Sequence record: SRR20825019_488 | DNA length: 64,000 nt | Reading direction: 5' to 3' (one strand) | In this document: positions 277 through 63,300 of the stretch, piece by piece | How the letters are laid out: every line of letters begins with the position of its first letter | How positions within the stretch are numbered: the stretch's first letter is position 1 | The notes under the pieces: generated by a model | Told to the model about the DNA's origin: nothing | Seen by the model: only the letters and a program-made list of their open reading frames with translations | The model's database searches: none | Program-made: the position numbers and the translations under genes

Positions 277-2691
277 ATGCAAAAACTGTTGACTCGCCTG
301 CAACGATTTCGAACCGGGTCTCCCCTGTCCTTCAGGCTGCTCGCATACATCCTGTTGTTCAGCTCGTTGTTCACGCTCATCTCTTCAGCTATCCAGATAT
401 ACTCGGATTACCGGAAGGACCTGTCGCAGATCGACAGGCGCATGATGGTTGTCGAAACCGGCTATACCTCCAGTCTGGCCCGCAGCCTATGGGCGCTGGA
501 TCAGAAACTCCTACAGACCCAGCTCGAAGGCATACTCAGCCTGCCAGACATCGTTCACCTACGCCTCAAAATTGAACCGGATTCCGAACTGGTCATGGGC
601 GAAATCCCTCGCAACGCCCAGACAATCAGCCATACGTTCAAGCTCACCCACCAGGGTGATGAAATGTTCAGTTTGGGTCAGTTGACCATCACCGCCGATC
701 TGAAGCGGGTGTTCTCGGACATGCGCCAAAAAGTCGTAGTGGTGCTGACCACCCAGTTCCTGAAGACCTTTTTCGTTTCGATCCTGATCATCTGGATTTT
801 CCAGCACTTCATTGCGCGGCACCTGACCACCATGGCCAACTACGCCCGCAATTTCTCACTCAACAACCTGTCAGACCCGCTTGAACTGGACCGACCGGAC
901 ACCCAACTGAATCGAAATGACGAACTGGCCCAGGTCACCGTTGCCATCAACCAGATGCGGGAACGTCTCAACGATGACCTCGAGCGACAGGAGCGCGATG
1001 CCCAGGAAATCCGAAAGTTCTCCAAGGCGATTGAGCAAAGCCCGTCATCGGTGCTGATTTGTGATCGCCAGTGGCGTATCGAATACGCCAACCAGAAATT
1101 CAGCCAGCTCACCGGCTACGACGCTGCCACCATCGCCGGGAAACACCCGGGCGTGCTATCCGAGGATGCACAGGCCCATCGAGAAAACCGCCAACTGTGG
1201 CAATCCATCCGACTTCAGGTCCAACGCGTGGGGGTCTGGCAGGGGGAAATCAACAGCGTTCGCAAGAACGGTGAGCGCTTCTGGGAACAACTGATCGTAA
1301 CCCCCATCAAGAATTCCAAGGGCGAAGCCACCGGCTACCTGATTCTTGGCGAAGATATCAGCATTCGCAAGCGCTACGAGCAACAACTGCTCAGACAGGC
1401 TAACTACGACATCCTGACCGGGCTTCCCAACCGGATGCTCGCCCTGGATCGCCTGAAACTGGCCCTGGCCCAGGCAAGACGCGAAAGCTCCCTGGTTGGC
1501 GTGATGTTTCTCGACCTGGACAACTTCAAGCACATTAACGATACCCTTGGGCACGACGCCGGCGACAACCTCCTGATAGAGGCCGCACGACGGATTTCCA
1601 GCTGCCTTCGGGGTACCAGCACCGTCGCCAGGCTTGGTGGTGATGAGTTTCTGGTAATATTGCCCGGCCTGACGGGCCCCGAGGCGACGTCACAGGTGGC
1701 AGAGCGTATCCTCAAGACCTTTGCCCCTCCTTACCTGCTGAATGGCCAGGAAGTGTTCGTAACCACCAGTATCGGTATCTCCGTTTTCCCGAACGACTCC
1801 GATAACAGCGGCACCCTGCTTCAACACGCCGATGCCGCCATGTACCAGGCCAAACACAAGGGTAAAAGTGCCTATGCTCTCTTTGCTCCGGAAATGACGG
1901 AAGTCTCCCATGAACGGCTGCAGATGGAATCGCTGATGCGCCGGGCCCTGGAGCAAAAAGAGTTTGAGCTCTACTACCAGCCCATTGTTCGCACTGAGTC
2001 CGGACAACTGTGCTCTGCCGAAGCCCTGCTGCGCTGGAATAACCCCGGTATGGGTATGGTCATGCCCGACCGGTTTATACCCCTGGCGGAAGAAACCGGC
2101 CTGATAACGCCGATTGGTGAATGGGTGTTACGGGAAGCCTGCCTGGCGGCCATACGCTGGAAAGAGTCCACTGGTACGGACATCGGTATTTCAGTCAACG
2201 TATCTCCCAGGCAATTCAGGGATCCGGGCTTTGTCGACACCGTCATGAATGCTCTCAAAGCCAGCGGTTTGCCCCCCCAGCAACTGGAACTGGAAATCAC
2301 TGAGCGACTGATCCTTGATAACACCATAGAAACCGCCGATATCCTGCGGCAGCTCGATCAATCCGGCATTCGCCTGTCAGTTGATGACTTCGGTACCGGC
2401 TATTCGGCGCTCAGCTACCTCAAGAGCTACCCTTTCGATACTCTGAAAATCGACAAATCCTTTGTTCAGGACGTGATGAAGGAGCGGGAGGACGCCTCGC
2501 TGGTGAAGGCCATTATCAACATGGCCCACAGTCTTGGCTTGAGTGTAATTGCAGAAGGCGTGGAAGAAGAAGCCCAGACACACTTCCTGCAACAGGAAGG
2601 CTGTGACTATTCACAAGGCTATTTCTACAGCAGGCCGATGCCCGAAAACGAGTTTCAGGAGTGGCTAAAGACCAACCATCGCGCCCTTTGA
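277..2691 (+). CDS. Membrane sensor PAS-GGDEF-EAL diguanylate cyclase/phosphodiesterase
   Basis: Two hydrophobic segments, HAMP-like linker, PAS, ARLGGDEF, EALLRW and DDFGTGYS motifs. Confidence 0.93.
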   Translation: MQKLLTRLQRFRTGSPLSFRLLAYILLFSSLFTLISSAIQIYSDYRKDLSQIDRRMMVVETGYTSSLARSLWALDQKLLQTQLEGILSLPDIVHLRLKIEPDSELVMGEIPRNAQTISHTFKLTHQGDEMFSLGQLTITADLKRVFSDMRQKVVVVLTTQFLKTFFVSILIIWIFQHFIARHLTTMANYARNFSLNNLSDPLELDRPDTQLNRNDELAQVTVAINQMRERLNDDLERQERDAQEIRKFSKAIEQSPSSVLICDRQWRIEYANQKFSQLTGYDAATIAGKHPGVLSEDAQAHRENRQLWQSIRLQVQRVGVWQGEINSVRKNGERFWEQLIVTPIKNSKGEATGYLILGEDISIRKRYEQQLLRQANYDILTGLPNRMLALDRLKLALAQARRESSLVGVMFLDLDNFKHINDTLGHDAGDNLLIEAARRISSCLRGTSTVARLGGDEFLVILPGLTGPEATSQVAERILKTFAPPYLLNGQEVFVTTSIGISVFPNDSDNSGTLLQHADAAMYQAKHKGKSAYALFAPEMTEVSHERLQMESLMRRALEQKEFELYYQPIVRTESGQLCSAEALLRWNNPGMGMVMPDRFIPLAEETGLITPIGEWVLREACLAAIRWKESTGTDIGISVNVSPRQFRDPGFVDTVMNALKASGLPPQQLELEITERLILDNTIETADILRQLDQSGIRLSVDDFGTGYSALSYLKSYPFDTLKIDKSFVQDVMKEREDASLVKAIINMAHSLGLSVIAEGVEEEAQTHFLQQEGCDYSQGYFYSRPMPENEFQEWLKTNHRAL

Positions 2692-52463: not shown

Positions 52464-54602
52464 ATGAACGCTAAAGCACAGGCAGTGATAACAACAATTC
52501 CAATGCAGGAAGCTTCGCTGGACATCTGGAACAGCAAGTACCAACTCAAAACCAAGACCGGCGAACCCGTCGATAAGGACATCGAAGCAACCTACGAGCG
52601 TGTTGCCACTGCCCTTGCCGAAGTGGAAAACAAAGCCAACCGCGCCAAGCACAAGAAAGAATTCGTCTGGGCCCTGCGCCACGGTGCCATCCCCGCTGGC
52701 CGCATTACCTCCAACGCCGGTGCGGAAGCCCACAAACCAGCCACGTCCACCATCAACTGCACCGTGTCTGGCTCCGTTCAGGACTCCATGAACGACATCC
52801 TGGAAAAAAACCACGAAGCCGGCCTCACCCTCAAAGCCGGTTGTGGTATTGGTTATGAATTCTCCACCCTGCGCCCCCGCGGCGCCTACGTTGCCGGTGC
52901 GGGTGCCACCACCTCCGGCCCGCTGTCGTTCATGGATATCTTCGACCGCATGTGCTTCACCGTGTCTTCCGCCGGTGGCCGCCGTGGCGCGCAGATGGCC
53001 ACCTTCGACGTACACCACCCGGACGTCATCGACTTCATCCAGGCCAAGCGTGAAGACGGCCGCCTGCGCCAGTTCAACCTGTCGCTGCTGATCACCGAAG
53101 ACTTCATCGAAGCCGTGCGCAACGGCGACGACTGGCACCTGTCGTTCCCCGTCACTGAAAAAGAAGTGGAAGACGAAGGCCTGGACCTGTCCGACGAAAC
53201 CCAGTTCGTGTACCGCGACTTCCCGATCCAGAAGGGTTACGTGGTCAATGGCGAAGGCAAGGTTGCGTGCCGCATCTACCGCACCCTGAAAGCCCAGTTC
53301 ATCTGGGACACCATCATGACCAGCACCTACGACTACGCCGAGCCAGGGTTCATCCTGATCGACAAGGTCAACCAGATGAACAACAACTGGTTCTGCGAAG
53401 ACATCCGCGCCACCAACCCCTGTGGCGAACAGCCCCTGCCCCCGTACGGCAGCTGCCTGCTGGGCTCTGTGAACCTGACCATGTTCGTGGACTACCCGTT
53501 CACCGACAAGGCCAGCTTCAACTATGAGAAGTACCGCAAAGTCGTGGGCATCTTTACCCGCATGCTGGACAACGTAGTGGAAATCAACGGCCTGCCGCTG
53601 GAAGAGCAGCGCCACGAAATTACCTACAAGCGCCGCCACGGCATGGGCATCCTCGGCCTGGGCTCCACCCTCGCCATGCTGCGTATGCCGTACGGCTCGT
53701 CCGAATCCGTGCAGTTTACCGAAGAAGTCGTACGTGAAATGGCCGTGGAAGGCTGGCGCCAGTCCCTGGCCCTGGCCGACGAAAAAGGCCCGGCGCCGAT
53801 CATGAACGACGAGTTTGAAGTCACCCCCAAGATGCTGACCAAGTGCCCGCAGCTGTCCCAGGACGGCTACAAACTGGGCGACAAGCTCAAGGGCAAGGTA
53901 CTGCACGCCAAGTACAGCAAGTACATGCAGCAGATCGCCGGCGTAGAGCCGGAGCTGATCGAGCAGCTGGCCGAGAAAGGTGGCCGCTTCACGCACCACA
54001 CCTCCATCGCGCCCACCGGCACCATCAGCCTGTCACTGGCCAACAACGCCAGTAACGGCATCGAGCCGAGCTTCTCGCACCACTACGCGCGTAACATCAT
54101 TCGCGAAGGGCGCAAGACCAAGGAAAAAGTCGACGTATTCTCCTTCGAGCTGCTGGCTTACCGCCACCTGGTTAACCCCGGTGCCATGCCCTTCTCCGAA
54201 GAAGAAGACAAGCGCCTGCCCCATTACTTCACCACGTCTGAAGACGTGACGCCGGCGCAGCACGTGGACATCCAGGCCGCGGCCCAACTGTGGGTGGACT
54301 CGTCCATCTCCAAGACCGCCAACGTGCCCCAGGACTTCGCGTATCCGGACTTCAAAGACATCTACATGTACGCCTACGACAAGGGCCTGAAGGGTTGCAC
54401 CACCTTCCGCTTTAACCCGGAAGCCTTCCAGGGCGTGCTGGTTCAGGAGAAAGACCTGGAAAACACACTGTACGAATTCACCCTGGACGACGGCAGCAAG
54501 GTGACCCTCAAGGGCAACGAACAGGTGGAGTACGACGGTGAGCTCCATAACGCCGCCAACCTGTTTGATGCGCTTAAAGAAGGCACCTACGGCAAATACT
54601 GA
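52464..54602 (+). CDS. nrdJa: Class II (B12-dependent) ribonucleotide reductase, large part
   Basis: PAGRI, TINC, GGRRGAQM, ATNPCGEQ, IAPTGTIS, KGCTTFR; no radical subunit adjacent; followed by nrdJb. Confidence 0.95.
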   Translation: MNAKAQAVITTIPMQEASLDIWNSKYQLKTKTGEPVDKDIEATYERVATALAEVENKANRAKHKKEFVWALRHGAIPAGRITSNAGAEAHKPATSTINCTVSGSVQDSMNDILEKNHEAGLTLKAGCGIGYEFSTLRPRGAYVAGAGATTSGPLSFMDIFDRMCFTVSSAGGRRGAQMATFDVHHPDVIDFIQAKREDGRLRQFNLSLLITEDFIEAVRNGDDWHLSFPVTEKEVEDEGLDLSDETQFVYRDFPIQKGYVVNGEGKVACRIYRTLKAQFIWDTIMTSTYDYAEPGFILIDKVNQMNNNWFCEDIRATNPCGEQPLPPYGSCLLGSVNLTMFVDYPFTDKASFNYEKYRKVVGIFTRMLDNVVEINGLPLEEQRHEITYKRRHGMGILGLGSTLAMLRMPYGSSESVQFTEEVVREMAVEGWRQSLALADEKGPAPIMNDEFEVTPKMLTKCPQLSQDGYKLGDKLKGKVLHAKYSKYMQQIAGVEPELIEQLAEKGGRFTHHTSIAPTGTISLSLANNASNGIEPSFSHHYARNIIREGRKTKEKVDVFSFELLAYRHLVNPGAMPFSEEEDKRLPHYFTTSEDVTPAQHVDIQAAAQLWVDSSISKTANVPQDFAYPDFKDIYMYAYDKGLKGCTTFRFNPEAFQGVLVQEKDLENTLYEFTLDDGSKVTLKGNEQVEYDGELHNAANLFDALKEGTYGKY

Positions 54603-54630
54603 TCCCGGGAACCGACACAGGACAACGAAC

Positions 54631-55320
54631 ATGACCGTTAAAATCAGCAACAAAATCGTCGGCTACCGCGTAAAGAAAGCCGACCCAGAAGCAGCACAAC
54701 CAGCCGCGCAGCCGGAAAACAAACCGGTTGAGATGAACGAATACATCGAGCGGCCGGACTTTCTGCTGGGCACCACCTACAAGATCAAGCCGCCGGTGGC
54801 CGAGCACGCGATGTACATCACCATCAATGACATCCTGCTCAACGAAGGCACCGACCACGAAAGCCGGCAGCCGTACGAAGTATTCATCAACTCCAAGTCG
54901 ATGGAACACTTCCAGTGGGTTATCGCCCTCACCCGCGTTGTCTCCGCCGTGTTCCGCAAAGGCGGCGACGTAACCTTCCTGGTGGAAGAACTGCGCAGCG
55001 TGTACGACCCCAACGGCGGCTACTTCAAGAAAGGCGGCGTATTCATGCCCTCACTTGTCGCCGAAATCGGCGCCGTGATCGAGAAGCACCTCAAGGCCAT
55101 CGGCCTGATTGAAAGCGAGGAAATGAGCGAAGTCACCAAACGCATCCTCGCCGAAAAACGCGCCGAATTCGAAGCCAGCCACACCACGGCCACGAACGAC
55201 GACAAAGCCGGCGACTACCCACCCAACGCCACCATGTGCGGCAAGTGCAGCACCAAGGCGGTGATTGTGATGGATGGGTGCGCGACTTGCCTGTCTTGTG
55301 GCGATAGTAAGTGCGGTTGA
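54631..55320 (+). CDS. nrdJb: Class II ribonucleotide reductase, small part (TSCPD-like plus C-terminal Cys cluster)
   Basis: GTTYKIK, YITIND, PYEVFIN; ends CGKC...GCATCLSCGDSKCG. Confidence 0.92.
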   Translation: MTVKISNKIVGYRVKKADPEAAQPAAQPENKPVEMNEYIERPDFLLGTTYKIKPPVAEHAMYITINDILLNEGTDHESRQPYEVFINSKSMEHFQWVIALTRVVSAVFRKGGDVTFLVEELRSVYDPNGGYFKKGGVFMPSLVAEIGAVIEKHLKAIGLIESEEMSEVTKRILAEKRAEFEASHTTATNDDKAGDYPPNATMCGKCSTKAVIVMDGCATCLSCGDSKCG

Positions 55321-55346
55321 GGTGATTGACTGCGATGTGTGATGAG

Positions 55347-55385
55347 AAGGCCTGGAGTGTGAAAGCTTCGGGCCTTTTTTGTTTT
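55347..55385 (+). terminator. Intrinsic terminator after nrdJb
   Basis: AAGGCCTGGAG-loop-CTTCGGGCCTTTTTTGTTTT. Confidence 0.85.
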
Positions 55386-55490
55386 CGCTCGGATGTAATC
55401 GCCTGACCGCTTCGTTATTACGTGGCGATATTACGACAGAGCTAGGCATCCGACTCGCAACATCTTGAAATATTGGCGGCTTTTAGGCGT

Positions 55491-55581
55491 GCGTTCTATA
55501 TTTTTGCGGAATAACGACGCGCAGTAATGCCGAAGTCACGTTTTGGAATATTGAAGCGTTCTATCAAGTACGCAGTTAGGT
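55491..55581 (+). other. Putative attI-like (or eroded attC) site; crossover G/TTAGGT at 55575-55581
   Basis: GTTAGGT is the exact complement of ACCTAAC (56980) closing cassette 1; no clear attC hairpin upstream; direct repeat GCGTTCTAT at 55491 and 55556. Confidence 0.6.
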
Positions 55582-55632
55582 ATAGGCGCTGATCGAAAAA
55601 TATCTTTATTTTTCAATAACAAGGAGAACGAA

Positions 55633-56574
55633 ATGCCAAATGTTGTAAGTATGATTAATTGGAAGGGTGGCGTGGGGAAAACATCACTTACGCTACATCT
55701 CGCGTCAGGTTTAGCTACACGGCATAGTAAGCGCGTTCTCCTGATTGACCTGGATGCTCAGTGCAACCTATCTTTTTTAGCTGTCGGCCTCTCTCCTTAT
55801 GTTGACCACACCTATAAGCGTAACGGGCCAACATTGAAAACGATTTTTGATGCATACTTTGATCGTAGTTCTCTGAATCCAAAAGATGTGATCTTGGAGA
55901 AGCAGGTTCGTGCGCGTGCCGGAAAGATATACACCCAAGTCGGTATCATCTTGTCTCACCAAGAACTCACCTTGCTAGATATGAAGCTTGCTCGTGAAAA
56001 GAGGTCGGGGAAGGACCATAGAGAGGAAACCCGATTTGAGATAGAAAAGCTTTCTGTAATTAAAAATATAATAGACTCAGTTTCGGATGAATACGATTAT
56101 GTACTTCTAGATTGCCCACCAAACGTCAATCTGGTTACCCAAAATGCTTTTTTTGCAAGCGACTACTATGTTGTTCCGGCGATTCCAGATTTTTTATCAA
56201 CCGTTGGTATCTCTTTGATTACAAAATACATGGATCAGTTCAATAAAGATTATAGTTCGATGTGGAGTTATGCAGGGCTTCCTGGAAGTTACAACGATAC
56301 AAAGTTTGGTGGAATTATTTTCAACATGGTTGACGAGTACGGTGGTGGTCCTAAGGACGGTCATCAGCAAATCATTAACTCCACTGCGTCGCAACTTGGC
56401 AAAGGAGCAGTTTTTGATAAATATGTTACGGATGGTGATGGCATGTCAGCGGCAGCACAAGTAAATCTTCCTGTATTTGCTTTTGCTGACCTACCACGAT
56501 CCCAGCAAAACGCCCAAAAGCAAGCTACGTATCTTGAGGGCGTGGTCGATGAGTTTATCACGCGAATTATATAA
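55633..56574 (+). CDS. ParA/Soj-family ATPase (cassette 1, gene 1)
   Basis: Deviant Walker A KGGVGKT, VLLIDLDAQCNLS, Walker B YVLLDCPP; RBS AAGGAG. Confidence 0.92.
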   Translation: MPNVVSMINWKGGVGKTSLTLHLASGLATRHSKRVLLIDLDAQCNLSFLAVGLSPYVDHTYKRNGPTLKTIFDAYFDRSSLNPKDVILEKQVRARAGKIYTQVGIILSHQELTLLDMKLAREKRSGKDHREETRFEIEKLSVIKNIIDSVSDEYDYVLLDCPPNVNLVTQNAFFASDYYVVPAIPDFLSTVGISLITKYMDQFNKDYSSMWSYAGLPGSYNDTKFGGIIFNMVDEYGGGPKDGHQQIINSTASQLGKGAVFDKYVTDGDGMSAAAQVNLPVFAFADLPRSQQNAQKQATYLEGVVDEFITRII

Positions 56575-56586
56575 GGTGGCTAATCT

Positions 56587-56985
56587 ATGAAGACACATGA
56601 GCTAGCCAACCAACTTGAATTGTTGGCAAAATTACTCAGAAGTATGCCAGACACTGAGTTTAGTGAAGCAAGTGGAGAGCAAGTGCAGCACTCTCTACAA
56701 CTATTTGAGAGCAAAACTACTAAGCCTTCTTCTCGTGCCAACAAATCATTGCCAAAAGGAATAGAAGAAAGCCTCTCAGGGAAATCTCCGGCTGAAATTG
56801 AAAAATTCCTTAGTTCCGAGGATGAGAACTTTTCCCTTAATAATCTCTTAGAGTTTGCGGAGCGTTTAGGTATTTCTACTTCAAAGCGGCAAAGCAAAAG
56901 TGCAGTAATAAACCTCATTACTAGGCATTTTGAGGCAAAGCAAATGCATTCGATAATTCGCAACACTAAGCCCGATGATACCTAA
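56587..56985 (+). CDS. Small hypothetical protein with C-terminal Rho-N/HeH-like motif (cassette 1, gene 2)
   Basis: 12 bp after the ParA stop; its stop TAA lies in the attC inverse core; SLNNLLEFAERLGI...SKSAVINLI pattern. Confidence 0.75.
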   Translation: MKTHELANQLELLAKLLRSMPDTEFSEASGEQVQHSLQLFESKTTKPSSRANKSLPKGIEESLSGKSPAEIEKFLSSEDENFSLNNLLEFAERLGISTSKRQSKSAVINLITRHFEAKQMHSIIRNTKPDDT

Positions 56986-57063
56986 CCAAAACAGGCACGG
57001 CGACGGCTACTCCACTGCGGCTGCGCCTCCATTCCGTAGCCGCGCGTGCTGTTGGCGTTAACG
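56980..57063 (+). repeat. attC site 1 (84 bp)
   Basis: ACCTAAC...GTTAACG; arms ACAG(G)CACG/CGTGCTGT and GCG(A)CGGCTAC/GTAGCCGCGC with typical extrahelical bases. Confidence 0.93.
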
Positions 57064-57085
57064 TTTTATCTATCAGAAGGAGTTC

Positions 57086-57733
57086 GTGTTGTCTCTGAAA
57101 GGTTTGATTGAAGAAGGTGCTGTAGCGAAACGTCTACTGAAGCCCGTTTTTTCGTGGGGTAGAGGCTCCTGGTTCAAAAGGCTTTTGGTTTTAAGTCTGT
57201 TTGGTCTGATTTTTATCACTGGTTACTACCTATTACTTCAGTCACTGCTTTCAGAGGTCAGAAAGCATGATGATCAGGTGTCAAAAGAAAGGAATCGGAT
57301 TGTAGACGCAAGTCTCTACCAAGCAACGATTGGTTTTGCGGAGCTGTGTCTTAAACCGGCAACGATAGATAAAGAGAACGCCTCTTGGTATTGCGAAAAG
57401 GCTTTGCAGTTGTATAAGAACAACAACAAAGGAACGCCACCTGAATTAAGGAATGAGATTGTCGAACGTAAGGCGTACGGGGCTATGGTTGCCGACATGG
57501 AATCTCAACTTAGAGGTATCAAGCTAGATCGACTTGATCAGACGTCCCCTGCTCTTGATTGGCTTGATCAGATATTGAGCAAAACTGGTATGTTTTTAAC
57601 ATTGTCCTTGGCTCTCTTCGGTATTTTGGCTTTGGTGTACGGCCTATATTTACACCGTGACAATTCGGAATCTGATGAGCCAGAAGGGGGTTCCAGTAAT
57701 TCTCAAAACACGTTAACAAGTGGGTCAAGCTGA
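57086..57733 (+). CDS. Two-TM membrane protein of unknown function (cassette 2)
   Basis: GTG start after AAGGAG, two hydrophobic segments flanking a helical domain with two Cys; stop falls inside attC2. Confidence 0.78.
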   Translation: MLSLKGLIEEGAVAKRLLKPVFSWGRGSWFKRLLVLSLFGLIFITGYYLLLQSLLSEVRKHDDQVSKERNRIVDASLYQATIGFAELCLKPATIDKENASWYCEKALQLYKNNNKGTPPELRNEIVERKAYGAMVADMESQLRGIKLDRLDQTSPALDWLDQILSKTGMFLTLSLALFGILALVYGLYLHRDNSESDEPEGGSSNSQNTLTSGSS

Positions 57734-57788
57734 CCGGGGTAAGTCCAACAATGTGCTTCGCACGTTGCCCCTTCGCAAAGCGTTAGGC
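57711..57788 (+). repeat. attC site 2 (78 bp, different family, damaged L' arm)
   Basis: CGTTAAC (complement of GTTAACG at 57057) ... GTTAGGC; central GTGC-TTC-GCAC hairpin; L'' GGGTCAAG lacks a matching partner. Confidence 0.78.
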
Positions 57789-57799
57789 ATGAGGGAGTT

Positions 57800-58291
57800 A
57801 TGGATAATTCTGACTACATAGCACTTGGATCGGCTGTAATTGCTTTGGCGGCTTTTGGAGTCGCCATATGGCAGGGACATATAAGCCGACGGCACAATAT
57901 TTTGTCAGTTAAGCCACGCTTTCATATTGATAAGAGCTATATCGAAGGCCTTCACTATCGGCTGGAGAGTCAGGGGCTAGGTCCTGGAGTAGTGAGAGAA
58001 TTTTCCATTCTTGTGAATGAGCAAGAAATTACCGACCCTACAGAAGATCCATGGCCCGACATATTCAAAGCTCTAGGGGTAACCGGGATCAATTATGATT
58101 TTCACATCCCGGCGGTTGGATCAACCCACGCACCCAACACCTCAAGGCAGCTGCTAAGCGTTACCTTTGCCAATATTTCAACTGACCCCAAAGTGATTGA
58201 GACGATTGATCAAGCAATAAACTTTAGGATTAAATTCAAATCACTGTATGAGAATGAGATGTTCTCTTACAAAGGGGGGGAGGATGCCTAA
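57800..58291 (+). CDS. N-terminally anchored membrane protein of unknown function (cassette 3)
   Basis: RBS GAGGGAG, one N-terminal TM, stop TAA inside GCCTAAC. Confidence 0.8.
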   Translation: MDNSDYIALGSAVIALAAFGVAIWQGHISRRHNILSVKPRFHIDKSYIEGLHYRLESQGLGPGVVREFSILVNEQEITDPTEDPWPDIFKALGVTGINYDFHIPAVGSTHAPNTSRQLLSVTFANISTDPKVIETIDQAINFRIKFKSLYENEMFSYKGGEDA

Positions 58292-58370
58292 CCATCGCAG
58301 GCACAGCGACGGCTTCTCCATTGCAGCTTCGCCTCCCCTCCATTCCAAAGCCGCGCATGCTGCAGGCGTT
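58286..58370 (+). repeat. attC site 3 (same family as attC1), interrupted after GTT by a MITE
   Basis: GCCTAAC complementary to GTTAGGC (57782); aligns with attC1 apart from a CCTCC duplication. Confidence 0.92.
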
Positions 58371-58538
58371 GAGGCTGTAGAAAATGTCCCGAGGTATTCT
58401 GGGGTGGCGCTCATACGTGAAATTTGAAGGATTTTTCGGAGCAAAATATGCCTCAGATTTTATGAAAAGGCGCTATTTTTAGTGCGAAATTTAAACAACT
58501 CGAGGCTTCGAAATAACTCTGGGGTTTTCTACAGCCTC
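58371..58538. mobile_element. 168-bp non-coding MITE with 14-bp perfect terminal inverted repeats
   Basis: GAGGCTGTAGAAAA ... TTTTCTACAGCCTC, flanked by GTT on both sides (58368-58370 and 58539-58541). Confidence 0.88.
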
Positions 58539-58554
58539 GTTAGGCGAGAATCGA

Positions 58555-59049
58555 ATGAGCATACTAGCCACACATGCACAGGATTTCCTGAATGCCTACG
58601 AGATCTTAAGGGAGAGCAACGACTCGTTCGTTAAACAGAACATACCTGATGCAGATGAACGGTGTATCGGAAAAACTTTTGGTACTCGTCCTGCAATGGG
58701 TGTCGATATCGTTTGCTTGGCATTTTCGGTCGAATTGCATTTGAAGGAACTGCATCGGGTGTCTTATGGCAAGATCCCTCGAGGACACAAGATCATTGAG
58801 CTTTTCAAGGCTTTGTCGGGAGCAGAACAGGAAGGAGTCGTTTCTCACCATTCCATAGCACGATACGGTTGGGATTGCGCACAATTGAAATGTGAGCTAC
58901 TTGCCATCAGCGACAGTTTCGAAAAGTGGAGATACGCCTACGAGAGCACAGCCCTCCGGTACAACATTTATTTCGCGAAGGCTCTAATAGAGGCTCTGCA
59001 ATTCGTAGCAGCAAGAAAAGGAGGCGTGCATGAGGCAAGGCGCACCTAG
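58555..59049 (+). CDS. HEPN-superfamily-like protein (cassette 4)
   Basis: AFSVELHLK, RGHKIIELFKAL and FEKWRYAYE resemble the HEPN E..LK / H.L..L / RY motifs. Confidence 0.68.
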   Translation: MSILATHAQDFLNAYEILRESNDSFVKQNIPDADERCIGKTFGTRPAMGVDIVCLAFSVELHLKELHRVSYGKIPRGHKIIELFKALSGAEQEGVVSHHSIARYGWDCAQLKCELLAISDSFEKWRYAYESTALRYNIYFAKALIEALQFVAARKGGVHEARRT

Positions 59050-59127
59050 CAAGCGCAGACATCGCGACGGCTTTTTCATTGCGGCTTCGCCTTCATTTCA
59101 AAGCCGCGCATGCTGCGGTCGTTATAT
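59044..59127 (+). repeat. attC site 4 (84 bp, attC1 family; inverse core AAC changed to AGC)
   Basis: ACCTAGC...GTTATAT; aligns with attC1 and attC3 (GCGACGGCT...AAAGCCGCGCATGCTGC). Confidence 0.9.
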
Positions 59128-59143
59128 TTTACAGGGAGGTTGA

Positions 59144-59704
59144 ATGGACACCCAGCAGTTACTTGAGGCTGCGCAGACAATCGACATTCTTCGATCAATG
59201 TTCGCCGATGATAAAAACGAATGGTTGCCGGTCATTGCAGCAATTGGGGGTGCATTCGTAGGCGGTATCTCGACCTTCGTCCCTAGCTATCTTCTGGAAA
59301 AGAGGAAGTTAAAGCAGGAGGCGCGCTCCGTAGAAACCGCCCTTGTTTCCGAAGTATCAGCCTTGCTCGAGGTTATTGAGCATCGAAGGTACGTCTACGG
59401 ATTGGAGGAGTCGGTTCACTATCTCAAGCAGAATCCTGGTAAGAAAAAGGTTTTTGCGACAAAAATACCTGAGCACTACTCACGTATTTATCAAGAGCAC
59501 ATCTCCAAGATTGGTCTGCTTCACCCCGACCTGTCTGCAAAAATCATCCGGTTTCATCAACTGATAGATTCGGGAGTCCAAGACATCTCTACAGGAGGCT
59601 TTATCGCAGAAACTGGTGGTGGCATTGAAGCTTTCGAAGAGTTACTCGAAATATTCTATTCGGCAGTGAAGATCGGCCGAGAGATTGTCGGAACAGAAAT
59701 ATAA
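59144..59704 (+). CDS. Single-TM helical protein of unknown function (cassette 5)
   Basis: RBS GGAGG, hydrophobic segment WLPVIAAIGGAFVGG, stop TAA inside ATATAAC. Confidence 0.8.
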   Translation: MDTQQLLEAAQTIDILRSMFADDKNEWLPVIAAIGGAFVGGISTFVPSYLLEKRKLKQEARSVETALVSEVSALLEVIEHRRYVYGLEESVHYLKQNPGKKKVFATKIPEHYSRIYQEHISKIGLLHPDLSAKIIRFHQLIDSGVQDISTGGFIAETGGGIEAFEELLEIFYSAVKIGREIVGTEI

Positions 59705-59759
59705 CCAGTCGCTGTAGTACGCGGTGCACTTACCCCAGTGAGAGAGGCTGCCGTTGATG
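59699..59759 (+). repeat. Truncated attC site 5 (left arm only)
   Basis: ATATAAC is the exact complement of GTTATAT (59121); CAGTCGCTGTAG follows but there is no complementary right arm. Confidence 0.7.
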
Positions 59760-60320
59760 GACGAAGAGGAATCCCTAAACAGAGCAATTCACGAAGATGT
59801 GAAGCTCTACCAATACAACCCCAACTGGCCAGCAATGTTCCAGGATGAGCGGGACCGCCTCCTTCATTTGTTTCCGGGTGAGTTTCTGGCGATCGAACAT
59901 ATCGGCAGCACCGCAGTACCCGGCCTATCGGCCAAGCCGATCATCGATATCCTGGCGGGGGTAGATTCGATGTCACGGGCCGATGAGTTAATGGAACCGT
60001 TGTGCCAGTCAAAATACGCTACCTCAATGGATTTCAATGCCTCGTTAGTGGATCGGCGTTGGCTTATGCGATGGGCCGAGGGGCGCAGGACACATCACCT
60101 GCATCTTATGGTGTTCGGTAGTCAGGAGTGGGATCGGCGCCTGGCCTTTCGGAACATACTTCGTGCCAATACGGAACTGGCACAACGGTATGAGCAAAAT
60201 AAGCGGATGTGGGTGGCGGAATTCCGTTCGGATAGAGAGGCCTATACTGCGGCTAAAGCAGATTTTATACGGGAGGCATTGAACCACTGCAACCCAGCTT
60301 CAGGACACAAGATCAGATGA
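59757..60320 (+). CDS. GrpB-family (nucleotidyltransferase-fold) protein
   Basis: YNPNWP..F..E, IEHIGSTAVPGLSAKPIIDI, HHLHL, FRNILR, YTAAK. Confidence 0.9.
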   Translation: MDEEESLNRAIHEDVKLYQYNPNWPAMFQDERDRLLHLFPGEFLAIEHIGSTAVPGLSAKPIIDILAGVDSMSRADELMEPLCQSKYATSMDFNASLVDRRWLMRWAEGRRTHHLHLMVFGSQEWDRRLAFRNILRANTELAQRYEQNKRMWVAEFRSDREAYTAAKADFIREALNHCNPASGHKIR

Positions 60321-60670
60321 GCGAATTCGTCGATAACCTCAATGATGTATTTTGCCAGTTCGGCCCGGTTTCCGTTCGGCGTATGTTCGGTGGCTATGGT
60401 GTGTACCACGATGGCGTGATGTTTGGCCTTGTTGCGGATGATGTTCTGTATCTGAAGGTCGATGGGGAATCGATGGGGCGGTTTACAGAGCTGGATTTGG
60501 AGCCGTTCGAATACGAGAAAAATGGCGCTAAGATTAAGATGTCTTACTACATGGCACCGGAGAGCATTTTCGAGGATTCTGAAGAGGCAAAAGAATGGGC
60601 AGAGCTGGCATTCAATGCGGCGCTCCGGGCCAGGAAACCAGCAGCAAGAACCAAGGCAAACAAGAAATGA
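60317..60670 (+). CDS. TfoX/Sxy N-terminal domain protein
   Basis: RRMFGGYGVY, MFGLV, LYLKVD, MSYY; ATGA overlap with the GrpB gene. Confidence 0.9.
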   Translation: MSEFVDNLNDVFCQFGPVSVRRMFGGYGVYHDGVMFGLVADDVLYLKVDGESMGRFTELDLEPFEYEKNGAKIKMSYYMAPESIFEDSEEAKEWAELAFNAALRARKPAARTKANKK

Positions 60671-60750
60671 CCGCCTACGTAATCGTCCATGGACTTACCC
60701 CGGTACAGTAGGCGCTCCTAGCCTTTGATCGGAGCATAAGAGGAATTTTC

Positions 60751-61491
60751 ATGAGAGTAGGCTTGCTGATCATCGTCGCATTCTGGTGCCTTCCAGTTTC
60801 TTCCCAAACGCTCGAAATTATGGGGTCGGACGAGGGTTTTCTGCCGTTTTATTACGGTGACAACCTTAACAAGGGCATTCTGGTTGAGGTGATCAATGAG
60901 TTCAGCCTGGAGGCCGGTATTACAGCCGGTTTTCGCCCGATGCCGCGCAAGCGCCAGGCCTGGGCCCTGGAAAAAGGACAAGCCAACGCGGTTTTTGCCA
61001 ACCCGTTGTGGATGCCGCTACCAAGCCGGATGCACGCCGTCGGACCGGTGTTAACCTGGCGAGATCGTCTGTTCGCACAACCTGGCCGACAACCGGCCTC
61101 CTTCGATGATCTTGATGGCAGCATCTGTCTGCGAAAATGGTTTGTCTACAGTGATCAACTTGAGCGGCGGATTGGTACCAACCTGGCCCGCCATGACTCT
61201 TATAATGCCCAACAGATGCTGGGCATGTTTCTGAACAAACGCTGCGATTACGCCGTCATGAACGAAATGGAGTTCCGGTTTCTGGCAAAGTTGGTGGAAG
61301 TCGATCCGAATTTTTACAGCACGGAACTGATCGACGCCGAATGGCCGGTCTATCTTGGTATCCTCAAAACCGAGGCGGCTCTGATTGAAGCGGCGGAAGC
61401 TTTTTTCGCTACCCGCACGGTTGATGCGGAAGCCATGCTACCCAAACTGCCGCCGCCGGACCGGCACATCTCGATTCAGCCGGACAAGTAA
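60751..61491 (+). CDS. Orphan periplasmic substrate-binding protein (family 3-like)
   Basis: Signal peptide, PFY..GILVEVI, PRKR, RCDYAV. Confidence 0.8.
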   Translation: MRVGLLIIVAFWCLPVSSQTLEIMGSDEGFLPFYYGDNLNKGILVEVINEFSLEAGITAGFRPMPRKRQAWALEKGQANAVFANPLWMPLPSRMHAVGPVLTWRDRLFAQPGRQPASFDDLDGSICLRKWFVYSDQLERRIGTNLARHDSYNAQQMLGMFLNKRCDYAVMNEMEFRFLAKLVEVDPNFYSTELIDAEWPVYLGILKTEAALIEAAEAFFATRTVDAEAMLPKLPPPDRHISIQPDK

Positions 61492-61505
61492 GGCAACTGA
61501 TTACT

Positions 61506-62609
61506 ATGACCGCTACCCTCACCATGGATCATTTGCGCCGCTACGCCATCTCGCGCAGTCTCTTCAAGCCGACCACTTTGGCACGTGCGATCAATAAACT
61601 GGGTTTTGTCCAGCTCGACCCAATACGAGCGCCGGCACGGGCGCAGGATTTGACGCTCCGCCATCGTGTTATCGACTACCAGGCGGGTGACCTGGAGGCT
61701 CGCTACCCGCGCCTGGCGGTCGAGGAAGATTTCTTTATCAACTACGGGGTTCTGCCCCGCACCACGCAGCGCCTTATGCACCCGCGCACGGCGCGCACCG
61801 AGTGGCCACGCTCACGCTGGGAACAGGCGCAGGCGGTGCAGGAATTTGTGCAAAGCCGTGGTGTCGTTCACCCGCGCGAGGTGGACTCAGCCTTCGAGCA
61901 TGGCACCACCAAGAATTGGTTCGGCGGTAATAGCCGTGCCAGTACGCAGCTCCTGGACGGCATGCATTATCGTGGGCTGCTGCGTGTGGCGAAGCGCGAA
62001 GGCGGGGTACGCCTGTATGCGCCGCCGCTCGCTGATGAGCTCGACGCGGTGAACCCGGATACCACTCTGGACGCATTGGTCGACGTCGCAGTCGCAAAGT
62101 ATGCCCCGCTGCCTGCGGCTACGCTCAGCCGCCTGGTAACGAGCGTGAGTTCTTCAGCGGTCCCGCAGTGGCGCGAGCGTCGTCGTGAAGCACTCGCGCG
62201 TGCAAAGGCTCGCCTGCCCCAGGCGACAGTTGATGGCTGTCGCTGGTTTTGGCCCATCGGCGAGAATCCTGGCAGTCGCCGCTTTGCGAGTGACAATGTG
62301 CTGGATGACCGCCTGCGCCTACTGGCGCCCTTCGATCCTTTAGTTTGGGACCGCGATCGCTTTGAGCGTTTCTGGGGCTGGGCCTACCGTTTTGAGGCCT
62401 ACACTCCGGCACCAAAGCGGGTGCGTGGTTACTATGCACTACCTATGCTGTGGCGCGGTCATGTCATAGGCTGGGCTAATGCCGCCGTACGTAATGGGCA
62501 ACTGGAGCTAGAGCCAGGGTACGTGCGCGGACATGCCCCAGACGACACCGCGTTCAAGCCAGCGTTGCAGGACGAGCGGGTACGCCTCGAGCGCTTTCTT
62601 TCGCTGTGA
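61506..62609 (+). CDS. YcaQ/AlkZ-family (HTH_42) DNA glycosylase
   Basis: VQLDPI (QxD), LAPFDPLVWDRDR, YRFEAYTPAPKR.RGYYALP. Confidence 0.88.
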   Translation: MTATLTMDHLRRYAISRSLFKPTTLARAINKLGFVQLDPIRAPARAQDLTLRHRVIDYQAGDLEARYPRLAVEEDFFINYGVLPRTTQRLMHPRTARTEWPRSRWEQAQAVQEFVQSRGVVHPREVDSAFEHGTTKNWFGGNSRASTQLLDGMHYRGLLRVAKREGGVRLYAPPLADELDAVNPDTTLDALVDVAVAKYAPLPAATLSRLVTSVSSSAVPQWRERRREALARAKARLPQATVDGCRWFWPIGENPGSRRFASDNVLDDRLRLLAPFDPLVWDRDRFERFWGWAYRFEAYTPAPKRVRGYYALPMLWRGHVIGWANAAVRNGQLELEPGYVRGHAPDDTAFKPALQDERVRLERFLSL

Positions 62610-62679
62610 GGCTCGGTGTGCGTGCGTAAAATGAGAGCAGTGTACTTGAAGTGACACCCTCCACCAGGGAGAAGCCCGG

Positions 62680-63222
62680 ATGGGTCTGAAAGAACATTTC
62701 CAATTATTGGCCGCTTACAATCAGTGGATGAACGCAAAGGTCTACGAAGCGGCCGGTCGCCTCTCCGCCTCGGAGTTAGCCAAGGACCGTGGGGCCTTCT
62801 TCGGCTCCATTCTGGGAACGCTCAATCACATCGTTGTGGCGGACACCGTGTGGCTCAAACGGTTTGTGACCCATCCATCCTGCGTGGACACGTTTCAGAC
62901 GGTCGCTGAGCTCGACAATCCTGCCAGCCTGGATCAGATCCTCTTTGACGATCTCGGGCGTTTAAAAGAACACCGGATCTGGCTGGATCGCCAGATTATC
63001 GACTGGATATCCCATCCCTCCGAAGGCGACCTGGATGTTGTTCTCAGTTATCACAACATGAAAGGTGTTTCCGCCAACAAGCGGTATTCGAGCCTGGTTC
63101 TCCATTTCTTTAACCATCAAACCCACCACCGCGGGCAAGTTTCAACGTTGCTGTCGCAGGCAGGCGTGGATGTTGGCGTTACCGACCTGTTGGAACGGAT
63201 TCCGGATGAAACGCAGGTATAA
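62680..63222 (+). CDS. DinB-family protein
   Basis: YNQWMN, FFGSILGTLNHI, HFFNHQTHHRGQ. Confidence 0.92.
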   Translation: MGLKEHFQLLAAYNQWMNAKVYEAAGRLSASELAKDRGAFFGSILGTLNHIVVADTVWLKRFVTHPSCVDTFQTVAELDNPASLDQILFDDLGRLKEHRIWLDRQIIDWISHPSEGDLDVVLSYHNMKGVSANKRYSSLVLHFFNHQTHHRGQVSTLLSQAGVDVGVTDLLERIPDETQV

Positions 63223-63300
63223 CACGACAAACAACCTCATCCGGTCCTTTTTACCTACGGGTTGGGAGGTAACGATGAACTCTGGTAGCAGGTCTTTTGA

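Follow-up and report, generated by a model that had tools for sequence, protein, structure and literature searches.

A 168-bp MITE at the GTT triplet of a Marinobacter attC site and its candidate IS1182-family partner

A gene-less MITE of 168 bp lies at positions 58371-58538 of the 64-kb stretch of DNA analysed here (the window), where inspection of the sequence finds it flanked left and right by GTT at the 3' end of an integron recombination site (attC) on a Marinobacter chromosome. With a probability of about 0.9, judged from comparison with related genomes, this MITE would owe its mobility to the DDE transposase, acting in trans, of an IS1182-family insertion sequence (IS) of ~1.83 kb that homes to the 3' ends of attC sites. 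The transposase of an IS carrying the same terminal inverted repeat (GAGGCTGTAGAAAA...) would mobilise the gene-less element in trans, the element would enter the attC 3' end at GTT, the triplet of the integrase crossover, and repair of a cut staggered by 3 bp, made by the DDE enzyme, would leave GTT on both sides.

The split attC site and its cassette array

The array is a series of short co-directional ORFs parted by imperfect palindromes of ~80 nt, with GTT triplets at 57057, 57782, 58368 and 59121 (Table 1). At 47.8%, the GC content of the array is lower than that of the window (56.4%). Located upstream are ribonucleotide reductase, a TSCPD-domain ORF and a ParA-like ATPase gene. The nearest genome examined (G001) is syntenic with window positions 54000-55388 and 60691-63224 at 95-97%, and the intervening DNA differs, the 5.3 kb of window 55388-60691 being wholly unlike the 2.6 kb at the syntenic place. 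Among the ORFs and domain matches of the window no integrase gene was found beside the array, which thus looks like an attC cluster away from the integron proper. In G001 the integron integrase gene is located at 3426967-3427905 (TIGR02249, 415 bits against a cut-off of 265), with copies of window attC1 and attC3 (94% and 85% identical) lying 1.6 and 2.6 kb away; in G001 coordinates the window array stands ~2 Mb from this integrase. Sites of the attC3 type were found in 127 of the 191 genomes searched in the genus. The cassette 3 ORF was found in none of these 191 genomes, its attC alone being matched.

The first array unit (window 55633-56985) contains two genes before attC1, encoding a ParA/AAA_31-type ATPase (313 aa) and a 132-aa ORF, and no attC was seen upstream of the ATPase gene. 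The 132-aa ORF (56587-56985) gave a sub-threshold match to HEPN_RiboL-PSP, of 19 bits against a cut-off of 28, and is not cassette 4. The original prediction had called the cassette 4 product HEPN-like; Pfam and PADLOC searches with the proteins of cassettes 2-5 returned no match, so that this label found no support and the weak HEPN similarity belongs to another ORF. Further downstream, window 59700-59760 contains a short possible attC (ATATAAC ... GCCGTTGATG), and window 59754-60670 carries a GrpB-family ORF (PF04229) and a 117-aa ORF overlapping its end, with no clear attC between them.

Table 1. Coordinates in the window of the attC sites, neighbouring cassettes and parts of the MITE
Feature	Position	Strand	Remarks
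attC1	56980..57063	+	GTT at 57057; 94% identical to G001:3429469-3429547
attC2	57711..57788	+	CGTTAAC ... GCGTTAGGC; GTT at 57782
Cassette 3 ORF, 163 aa	57800..58291	+	Without family match
attC3 body, R'' GCCTAAC (58286-58292) to GTT	58286..58370	+	attC type also found beside intI in G001
Left GTT of putative target duplication, final 3 bases of attC3 body	58368..58370	+	GTT here in 88-89 of 89 unique sites
MITE (non-autonomous transposon), orientation class B	58371..58538	+	Inverted repeats, related copies, ends in common with the IS
Left terminal inverted repeat GAGGCTGTAGAAAA	58371..58384	+	Same 14-mer terminates full-length IS copies
Right terminal inverted repeat TTTTCTACAGCCTC	58525..58538	+	Repeat search
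Right GTT of putative target duplication	58539..58541	+	Empty sites have one GTT; AGGC at 58542-58545 is the rest of the R' core
Cassette 4 ORF, 164 aa	58555..59049	+	Without family match; ATG 16 nt past the MITE
attC4	59043..59127	+	GTT at 59121; same sequence family as attC3

The third attC ends ...CAGGCGTT at 58370, GTTAGGC occupies 58539-58545, and the next ORF begins with an ATG at 58555, the order at the junctions being ...CAGGC-GTT (58368-58370) / GAGGCTGTAGAAAA...TTTTCTACAGCCTC / GTT (58539-58541)-AGGC. The arms of the element are 14 nt long and 100% complementary, are separated by 140 nt and lie exactly at the tips. When the element and one GTT were deleted in silico, GTTAGGC was obtained, the exact complement of the GCCTAAC heptamer (58286-58292) that overlaps the stop codon of the upstream ORF. 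Both cores of the split site are thus present at the cassette boundary (GCCTAAC ... GTT / element / GTTAGGC), and the reconstructed site is predicted to fold with the two cores paired. The repeat upstream of the element is an attC proper, of a family found again at the other boundaries between cassettes of the window. The original prediction, of a 168-bp element with perfect 14-bp inverted ends (58371-58384 and 58525-58538), inserted precisely at the attC GTT crossover and leaving a normal core when removed with one GTT, proved correct to the base.

No ORF of at least 50 aa lies wholly within 58371-58538, and the MITE is thus without a transposase gene. The window contains only one complete copy, and the best tblastn match of the partner transposase (see below) in the 64 kb has an E value of 3.5. 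The GC content of the MITE is 42%, compared with 56% for the window, and a single strand is predicted to fold as a long hairpin (-60.8 kcal/mol, z -5.7). No Rfam match was obtained in 58000-59200 at E<=1, a simple scan of 58200-58700 gave no promoter-like or terminator-like site, and a plasmid collection searched with the 168-bp MITE gave no match. Allowing up to two mismatches, the terminal 14-mer occurs in the window only at the two tips, where 0.28 matches would be expected by chance, and at least two matches were obtained in 3 of 100 shuffles. On the comparative sequence evidence the feature is not due to chance, a question settled by the family because of the copies in relatives and the target pattern of the pooled sites.

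The insertion would have parted the attC3 body, which now ends in GTTGAGG, from its old R' core GTTAGGC, left with cassette 4. The new end would pair poorly with R'' beyond the AAC/GTT triplet. If transcribed, the self-pairing 168-nt hairpin would stand 16 nt ahead of the start codon of cassette 4. As the original prediction suggested, the split attC may still recombine, the MITE might then travel with cassette 4, and it could affect expression.

Related copies, the partner IS and their distribution

Matches to the MITE (E<=0.01) were found in 23 of 201 genomes of the bacterial family, where 24 copies have paired end motifs; with that of the window, 25 paired copies of 157-168 bp with differing flanks are available. 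Every copy is flanked on both sides by GTT (AAC when read on the opposite strand), apart from a single mutated triplet in each of four copies. Their flanks resemble attC 3' ends, for example ...GCGCATGCTGCAAGCGTT / element / GTTAGGC, as anticipated by the original prediction, and the copies stand ahead of unrelated cassettes. The closest other copy is 78% identical to that of the window, and the window insertion is therefore old. The same MITE and cassette pair placed behind different attC sites, a sign of hitchhiking, was not seen among the 25 copies. One truncated MITE, of approximately the first 60 nt, is present in G001 directly after the attC sequence CAGGCGTT, in the variable region syntenic to the window array (G001:C1:1396080-1396150; L001 ~1480-1550, minus strand), with the orientation of the window copy.

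Some further features of the copies may be mentioned. The interior of the MITE (window 58403-58480) includes a core kept across copies otherwise 70-80% alike, with a consensus of approximately GCGCTCCTACGTAAAATCTGG ... CCAGATTTTAAGAATAGGCGCTATTTTTAG, and this core contains the inverted repeat AAATCTGG/CCAGATTT. The string GTATGGATAATTT... recurs by MITE ends or attC starts in several genomes (flanks of L025 and L027; upstream flanks of L041 and L053). In both L025 and L027 the cassette-side triplet is GTA and the tip of the element is ...CCTT, that is, two changes at one junction.

An autonomous partner with the same ends was identified in the family genomes. Single ends located at contig edges read GCGTT / GAGGCTGTAGAAAAAGTCCCG..., followed ~90 nt on by an ATG and the N-terminus of a transposase, and the left 350 bp of this IS are present in 91 of the 201 genomes. 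In 22 of the 28 loci kept the IS is complete, with a length of 1,813-1,842 bp, ends reading GAGGCTGTAGAAAAA... and one open frame bounded by the terminal inverted repeats; the transposase frame, of 505-549 aa, is intact in all 22 full-length copies. The MITEs and the IS have only their terminal 18-22 bp in common, and these are identical. The 535-aa ORF of locus L065 matches the NCBIfam model of the IS1182 family (NF033551; 278 bits against a cut-off of 270, covering residues 23-529), the family that had been guessed from the termini, and scores 44 bits against a cut-off of 140 with the IS5 model. It also matches PF13751 (DDE_Tnp_1_6), PF05598 (DUF772) and PF01609 (DDE_Tnp_1).

The names given to relatives of this transposase at the source are generic ('IS1182 family transposase', 'transposase', 'IS4 family transposase'), and the ISMaq elements of the literature, considered as a named match, belong to other families. 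The IS copy of locus L046 (G114:C10:1-895) resembles other copies only in its first 350 bp and has a transposase frame ending after 134 aa; this copy is probably interrupted by other DNA. In G001 the left 350 bp of the partner IS gave no match. Since no transposase is present in the window or in G001, the MITE copy of the window may be stranded.

The lineage extends well beyond Marinobacter. Among GTDB species genomes (one genome per species) 546 relatives of the transposase were found, the best 79 of which come from Marinobacter, Halomonas, Vreelandella, Billgrantia, Marinospirillum, Oleiphilus, Hahellaceae, Cellvibrionaceae and others. At least 7,638 proteins, among 8,000 candidates scored, matched at E<=1e-50, indicating a large transposase clade. 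The best relatives found in the plasmid collection are 42-43% identical and come from Pseudoalteromonas. The IS of P. piscicida has the ends GAGGCTGTAGAATTAC / GTTATTCTACAGGCTC and is inserted at ...ACGGCGTT / IS / GTTATAT, so that in Pseudoalteromonas, at 42% identity, the ends are still the same and the target reads GGCGTT/.../GTTATAT. An exact search of all species genomes with a 15-mer of the end gave at least 127 matches at no fewer than 120 loci; among the 127 matches listed, GTT precedes 31 and AAC 33, with no other triplet more than 4 times. The flanked loci listed come from Thiothrix, Hydrogenophilales, Steroidobacteraceae, Desulfuromonadaceae, Paraglaciecola and others, and include 17 pairs of MITE size (108-338 bp) and 6 of IS size, all of the form ...GTT / GTT....

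Target choice, orientation and alternative explanations

When all sets were pooled and duplicates removed, 89 unique sites with sufficient flanking sequence (63 IS and 26 MITE) were available, with GTT at both sides in 84 and at one side in 5. A GTT on both sides fits a target duplication and a GTT-carrying mobile unit alike. We infer that the transposase, rather than IntI, performs the integration, and that the GTT is probably a true target duplication.

The orientation of the insertions bears on this question. In all 22 full-length IS copies from family genomes the transposase gene runs along the attC top strand, in the direction of the cassettes (in L059 as judged from a single complete flank). 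The 79 GTDB loci, 11 of which were cut by contig ends, yielded 68 end pairs, and after removal of three spurious left matches (L101, L108, L153) all 65 true gene-oriented pairs, a set that overlaps with the 22 copies, read ...GTT / IS / GTT..., with GCT on the right side of L158 as the lone exception. In the MITEs, 22 of the 25 Marinobacteraceae copies lie one way with respect to attC; those of the window, L025 and L048 are homologous over their full length yet inverted relative to the other 22, as is the G001 remnant. Comparison of the 43 MITEs of all sets gave 265 homologous pairs with the same orientation and 46 inverted pairs, every one of the latter involving the window, L025 or L048. Either small differences at the tips set the orientation and an internal flip took place in the lineage of the window copy, or orientation is inherited together with the GTT. 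In L089 (M. nauticus ABH-585), L066, L069 and L107, IS copies are arranged head to tail as IS-GTT-IS-GTT-IS, with a single GTT common to neighbours, and the junctions of an inserted copy therefore become targets again.

Inherited orientation is a feature of one alternative, in which the transposase would only excise or circularise the element, and integration would be site-specific at the GTT of the circle junction (IRR-GTT-IRL), carried out by IntI or templated by the GTT. The triplet would then be no target duplication, and orientation would not be read from the ends. Recombination at G/TT would also produce attC...G/TT-element-G/TT-RRRY, and the abutted ends would make a perfect inverted repeat around the GTT. 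Orientation is uniform within lineages, with the same MITE interior found in both orientations, and the attC-side and cassette-side ends are not clearly told apart by their terminal 20 nt. It is nevertheless very unlikely. DDE enzymes normally carry out integration themselves, and the conservation of an intact DDE frame in every full-length copy argues against a transposase confined to excision. In addition, the element lacks an attC-like fold with a paired AAC/GTT, and the inverted copies might also stem from a flip of the element in place, through its inverted repeats, with the ends determining the targeting thereafter.

A broader proposal, doubtful at present, is that of a deep, multi-phylum clade of IS1182-family DDE elements specialised on the attC crossover triplet, in which orientation is inherited with the GTT and transposition and integron recombination are mechanistically coupled. 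The GTT spacer of the circular junction would then pair with the staggered target, or IntI would be borrowed for integration, and gene-less MITEs would spread between arrays as leader sequences of the cassettes downstream of them.

As to the target sequence, base counts at the 89 unique sites showed G at -5 in 81, C at -4 in 87 and A at +4 in 79, and, at a fixed distance in the L' region, C at -17 in 75 and T at -13 in 62. The preferred target is thus GCGTT^A plus the fixed-distance conservation in the L' region, and the consensus of the inserted elements is GCGTT / element / GTTA. Conservation is strongest at these six bases, and the IS and MITE might simply prefer GCGTTA, with no specificity for attC as such, attC merely carrying the hexamer. 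A few flanks do appear to be non-attC, for example CACGTT/.../GTTGCCG in L052. Against this, 169 GCGTT sites occur in the 64-kb window outside the array, so that attC sites are a small minority and a pure hexamer preference would place few insertions in them. Flanks homologous to window attC1, attC3 or attC4, of one attC sequence family, nevertheless amount to 22 of 92. The predicted hairpin energy of the reconstructed sites has a median of -18.8 kcal/mol (n=88), compared with -13.5 at the 169 control GCGTT sites of the window (p 9e-14), which together with the conserved -17 and -13 positions argues for recognition of more than the hexamer. Collapsed 1.8-kb contigs terminate in GCGTT and GTTA, and the strict orientation requires an asymmetric target larger than six bases. 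Simple preference for the hexamer is accordingly highly improbable, and we infer that recognition of attC involves both its hairpin and its sequence. For the remaining 70 of the 92 flanks the label of attC is a putative one, resting on GCGTTA, the fixed-distance conservation and the energy shift rather than on a formal attC model.

Several classifiers of attC structure were tried and set aside. Strict 7/7 complementarity of R'' and R' was passed by 9 of 42 sites, and was dropped because the four bases after the GTT belong to the next cassette. The other two failed to part targets from controls, a result in keeping with a mere hexamer preference. The best constrained hairpin over upstream AAC positions gave medians of -16.1 for targets and -9.6 for controls, with overlapping tails, as longer spans are favoured; values under the 5th percentile were obtained for 12 of 85 targets and for 9 of 168 controls. 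A pairing score combining R-box and L-box reached at least 9 in 50 of 87 targets and in 197 of 1,984 control GTTs, and was abandoned since window attC1 scored 8, attC2 scored 7 and attC4 had no score.

Empty sites, also expected by the original prediction, were found in relatives. A cassette-4 homologue in M. sediminicola (64% aa identity) is preceded by ...CGCCGCTAAACAAAAGCGTTAGGCGAGATTCATATG, with a single GTT and without the element, and its cassette begins as that of the window does; the sequence ahead of this homologue reads ...AAAGCGTTAGGCGAGATTCATATG. The homologue of Alcanivorax limicola (67% aa) has no MITE upstream. These are the two close homologues covered by the comparison, two further matches being only 29-36% identical. 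In addition, all 13 sites of the attC3 type examined, in 10 loci, run from GCGTT/A into unique sequence with no element. Because both close homologues and the 13 sites are without it, the MITE is, on this comparison of sequences, not part of cassette 4, and its second GTT arrived with the insertion.

GTT on either side and a place directly before the cassette 4 start codon might suggest that the segment is an integron cassette without an ORF, or a 5' leader fixed to cassette 4. The probability of this is practically negligible, since the two ends of the segment are inverted repeats of each other without a paired AAC/GTT (hence no attC of its own), these repeats are common with the IS, neither close cassette-4 homologue carries it, and copies precede unrelated cassettes.

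Relation to other attC-targeting elements

The attC-targeting mobile elements met in the literature, in the portions of the papers cited below, are of two kinds only, the RNA-guided IS of the IS1111-attC group and the group IIC-attC introns. The former (ISKpn4, ISPst6 and ISPa21, of the IS110/IS1111 families) are described in PMC11187229 as targeting one attC end at a specific location (Tetu & Holmes 2008 and Post & Hall 2009, as cited elsewhere), with a DEDD transposase guided by a seekRNA and with subterminal inverted repeats; a passage of PMC11089894 also names the IS1111 group as an example of attC targeting. The lineage described here has in common with them a site- and orientation-specific insertion into attC, a shared behaviour and not membership, and differs in its IS1182-family DDE transposase (only DDE and IS1182 models match), its terminal repeats and the GTT on both sides. 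To our knowledge, IS1111-attC elements make no target duplication. Since the partner transposase is of the DDE and not of the DEDD type of IS1111-attC elements, the lineage is a separate one, in agreement with the original prediction of a possibly distinct attC-targeting non-autonomous family.

Within the IS1182 family, IS1272 was described, in part of PMC5678879, as targeting inverted-repeat structures without target duplications. It belongs to the same transposase family (NF033551) as the partner IS, and in that portion of the paper IS1272 is not reported in attC and makes no duplications (PMC5678879), whereas the insertions described here have a fixed GCGTT^A in putative attC sites, a 3-bp repeat and a strict orientation. 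The identity of the partner transposase with the staphylococcal IS1182 enzyme is ~26%. Group IIC-attC introns are likewise reported to insert into attC sites (PMC3001079). Those introns are retroelements with a ribozyme and a reverse transcriptase, whereas the element of the window is a 168-bp inverted-repeat DNA transposon with no ORF and no Rfam match. Bacterial MITEs derived from IS, such as the Correia elements, are short and gene-less, with the ends of an autonomous IS, a short target repeat and many copies. The MITEs described here differ from bacterial MITEs in general in that they enter a single class of recombination site at a specific position and in a specific orientation. Full-text searches of the literature brought up no paper that deals, by its title or abstract, with an IS1182-family element or MITE targeting attC, and an ISfinder entry for such an element could exist.

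A third, unrelated lineage of attC-targeting elements, if true, would mark the attC 3' end as a safe harbour that has been exploited repeatedly. This lineage would be an ordinary family of DDE transposons, with a 3-bp GTT repeat, a strict orientation and many MITE derivatives, and would offer a simple, protein-only system for the study of how a transposase reads a recombination hairpin. Each insertion would split the R' core from the body of its attC, and may thus freeze or re-pair cassettes. The elements also break assemblies and cassette calling in marine Gammaproteobacteria, in which many 1.8-kb contigs have just these GCGTT and GTTA ends.
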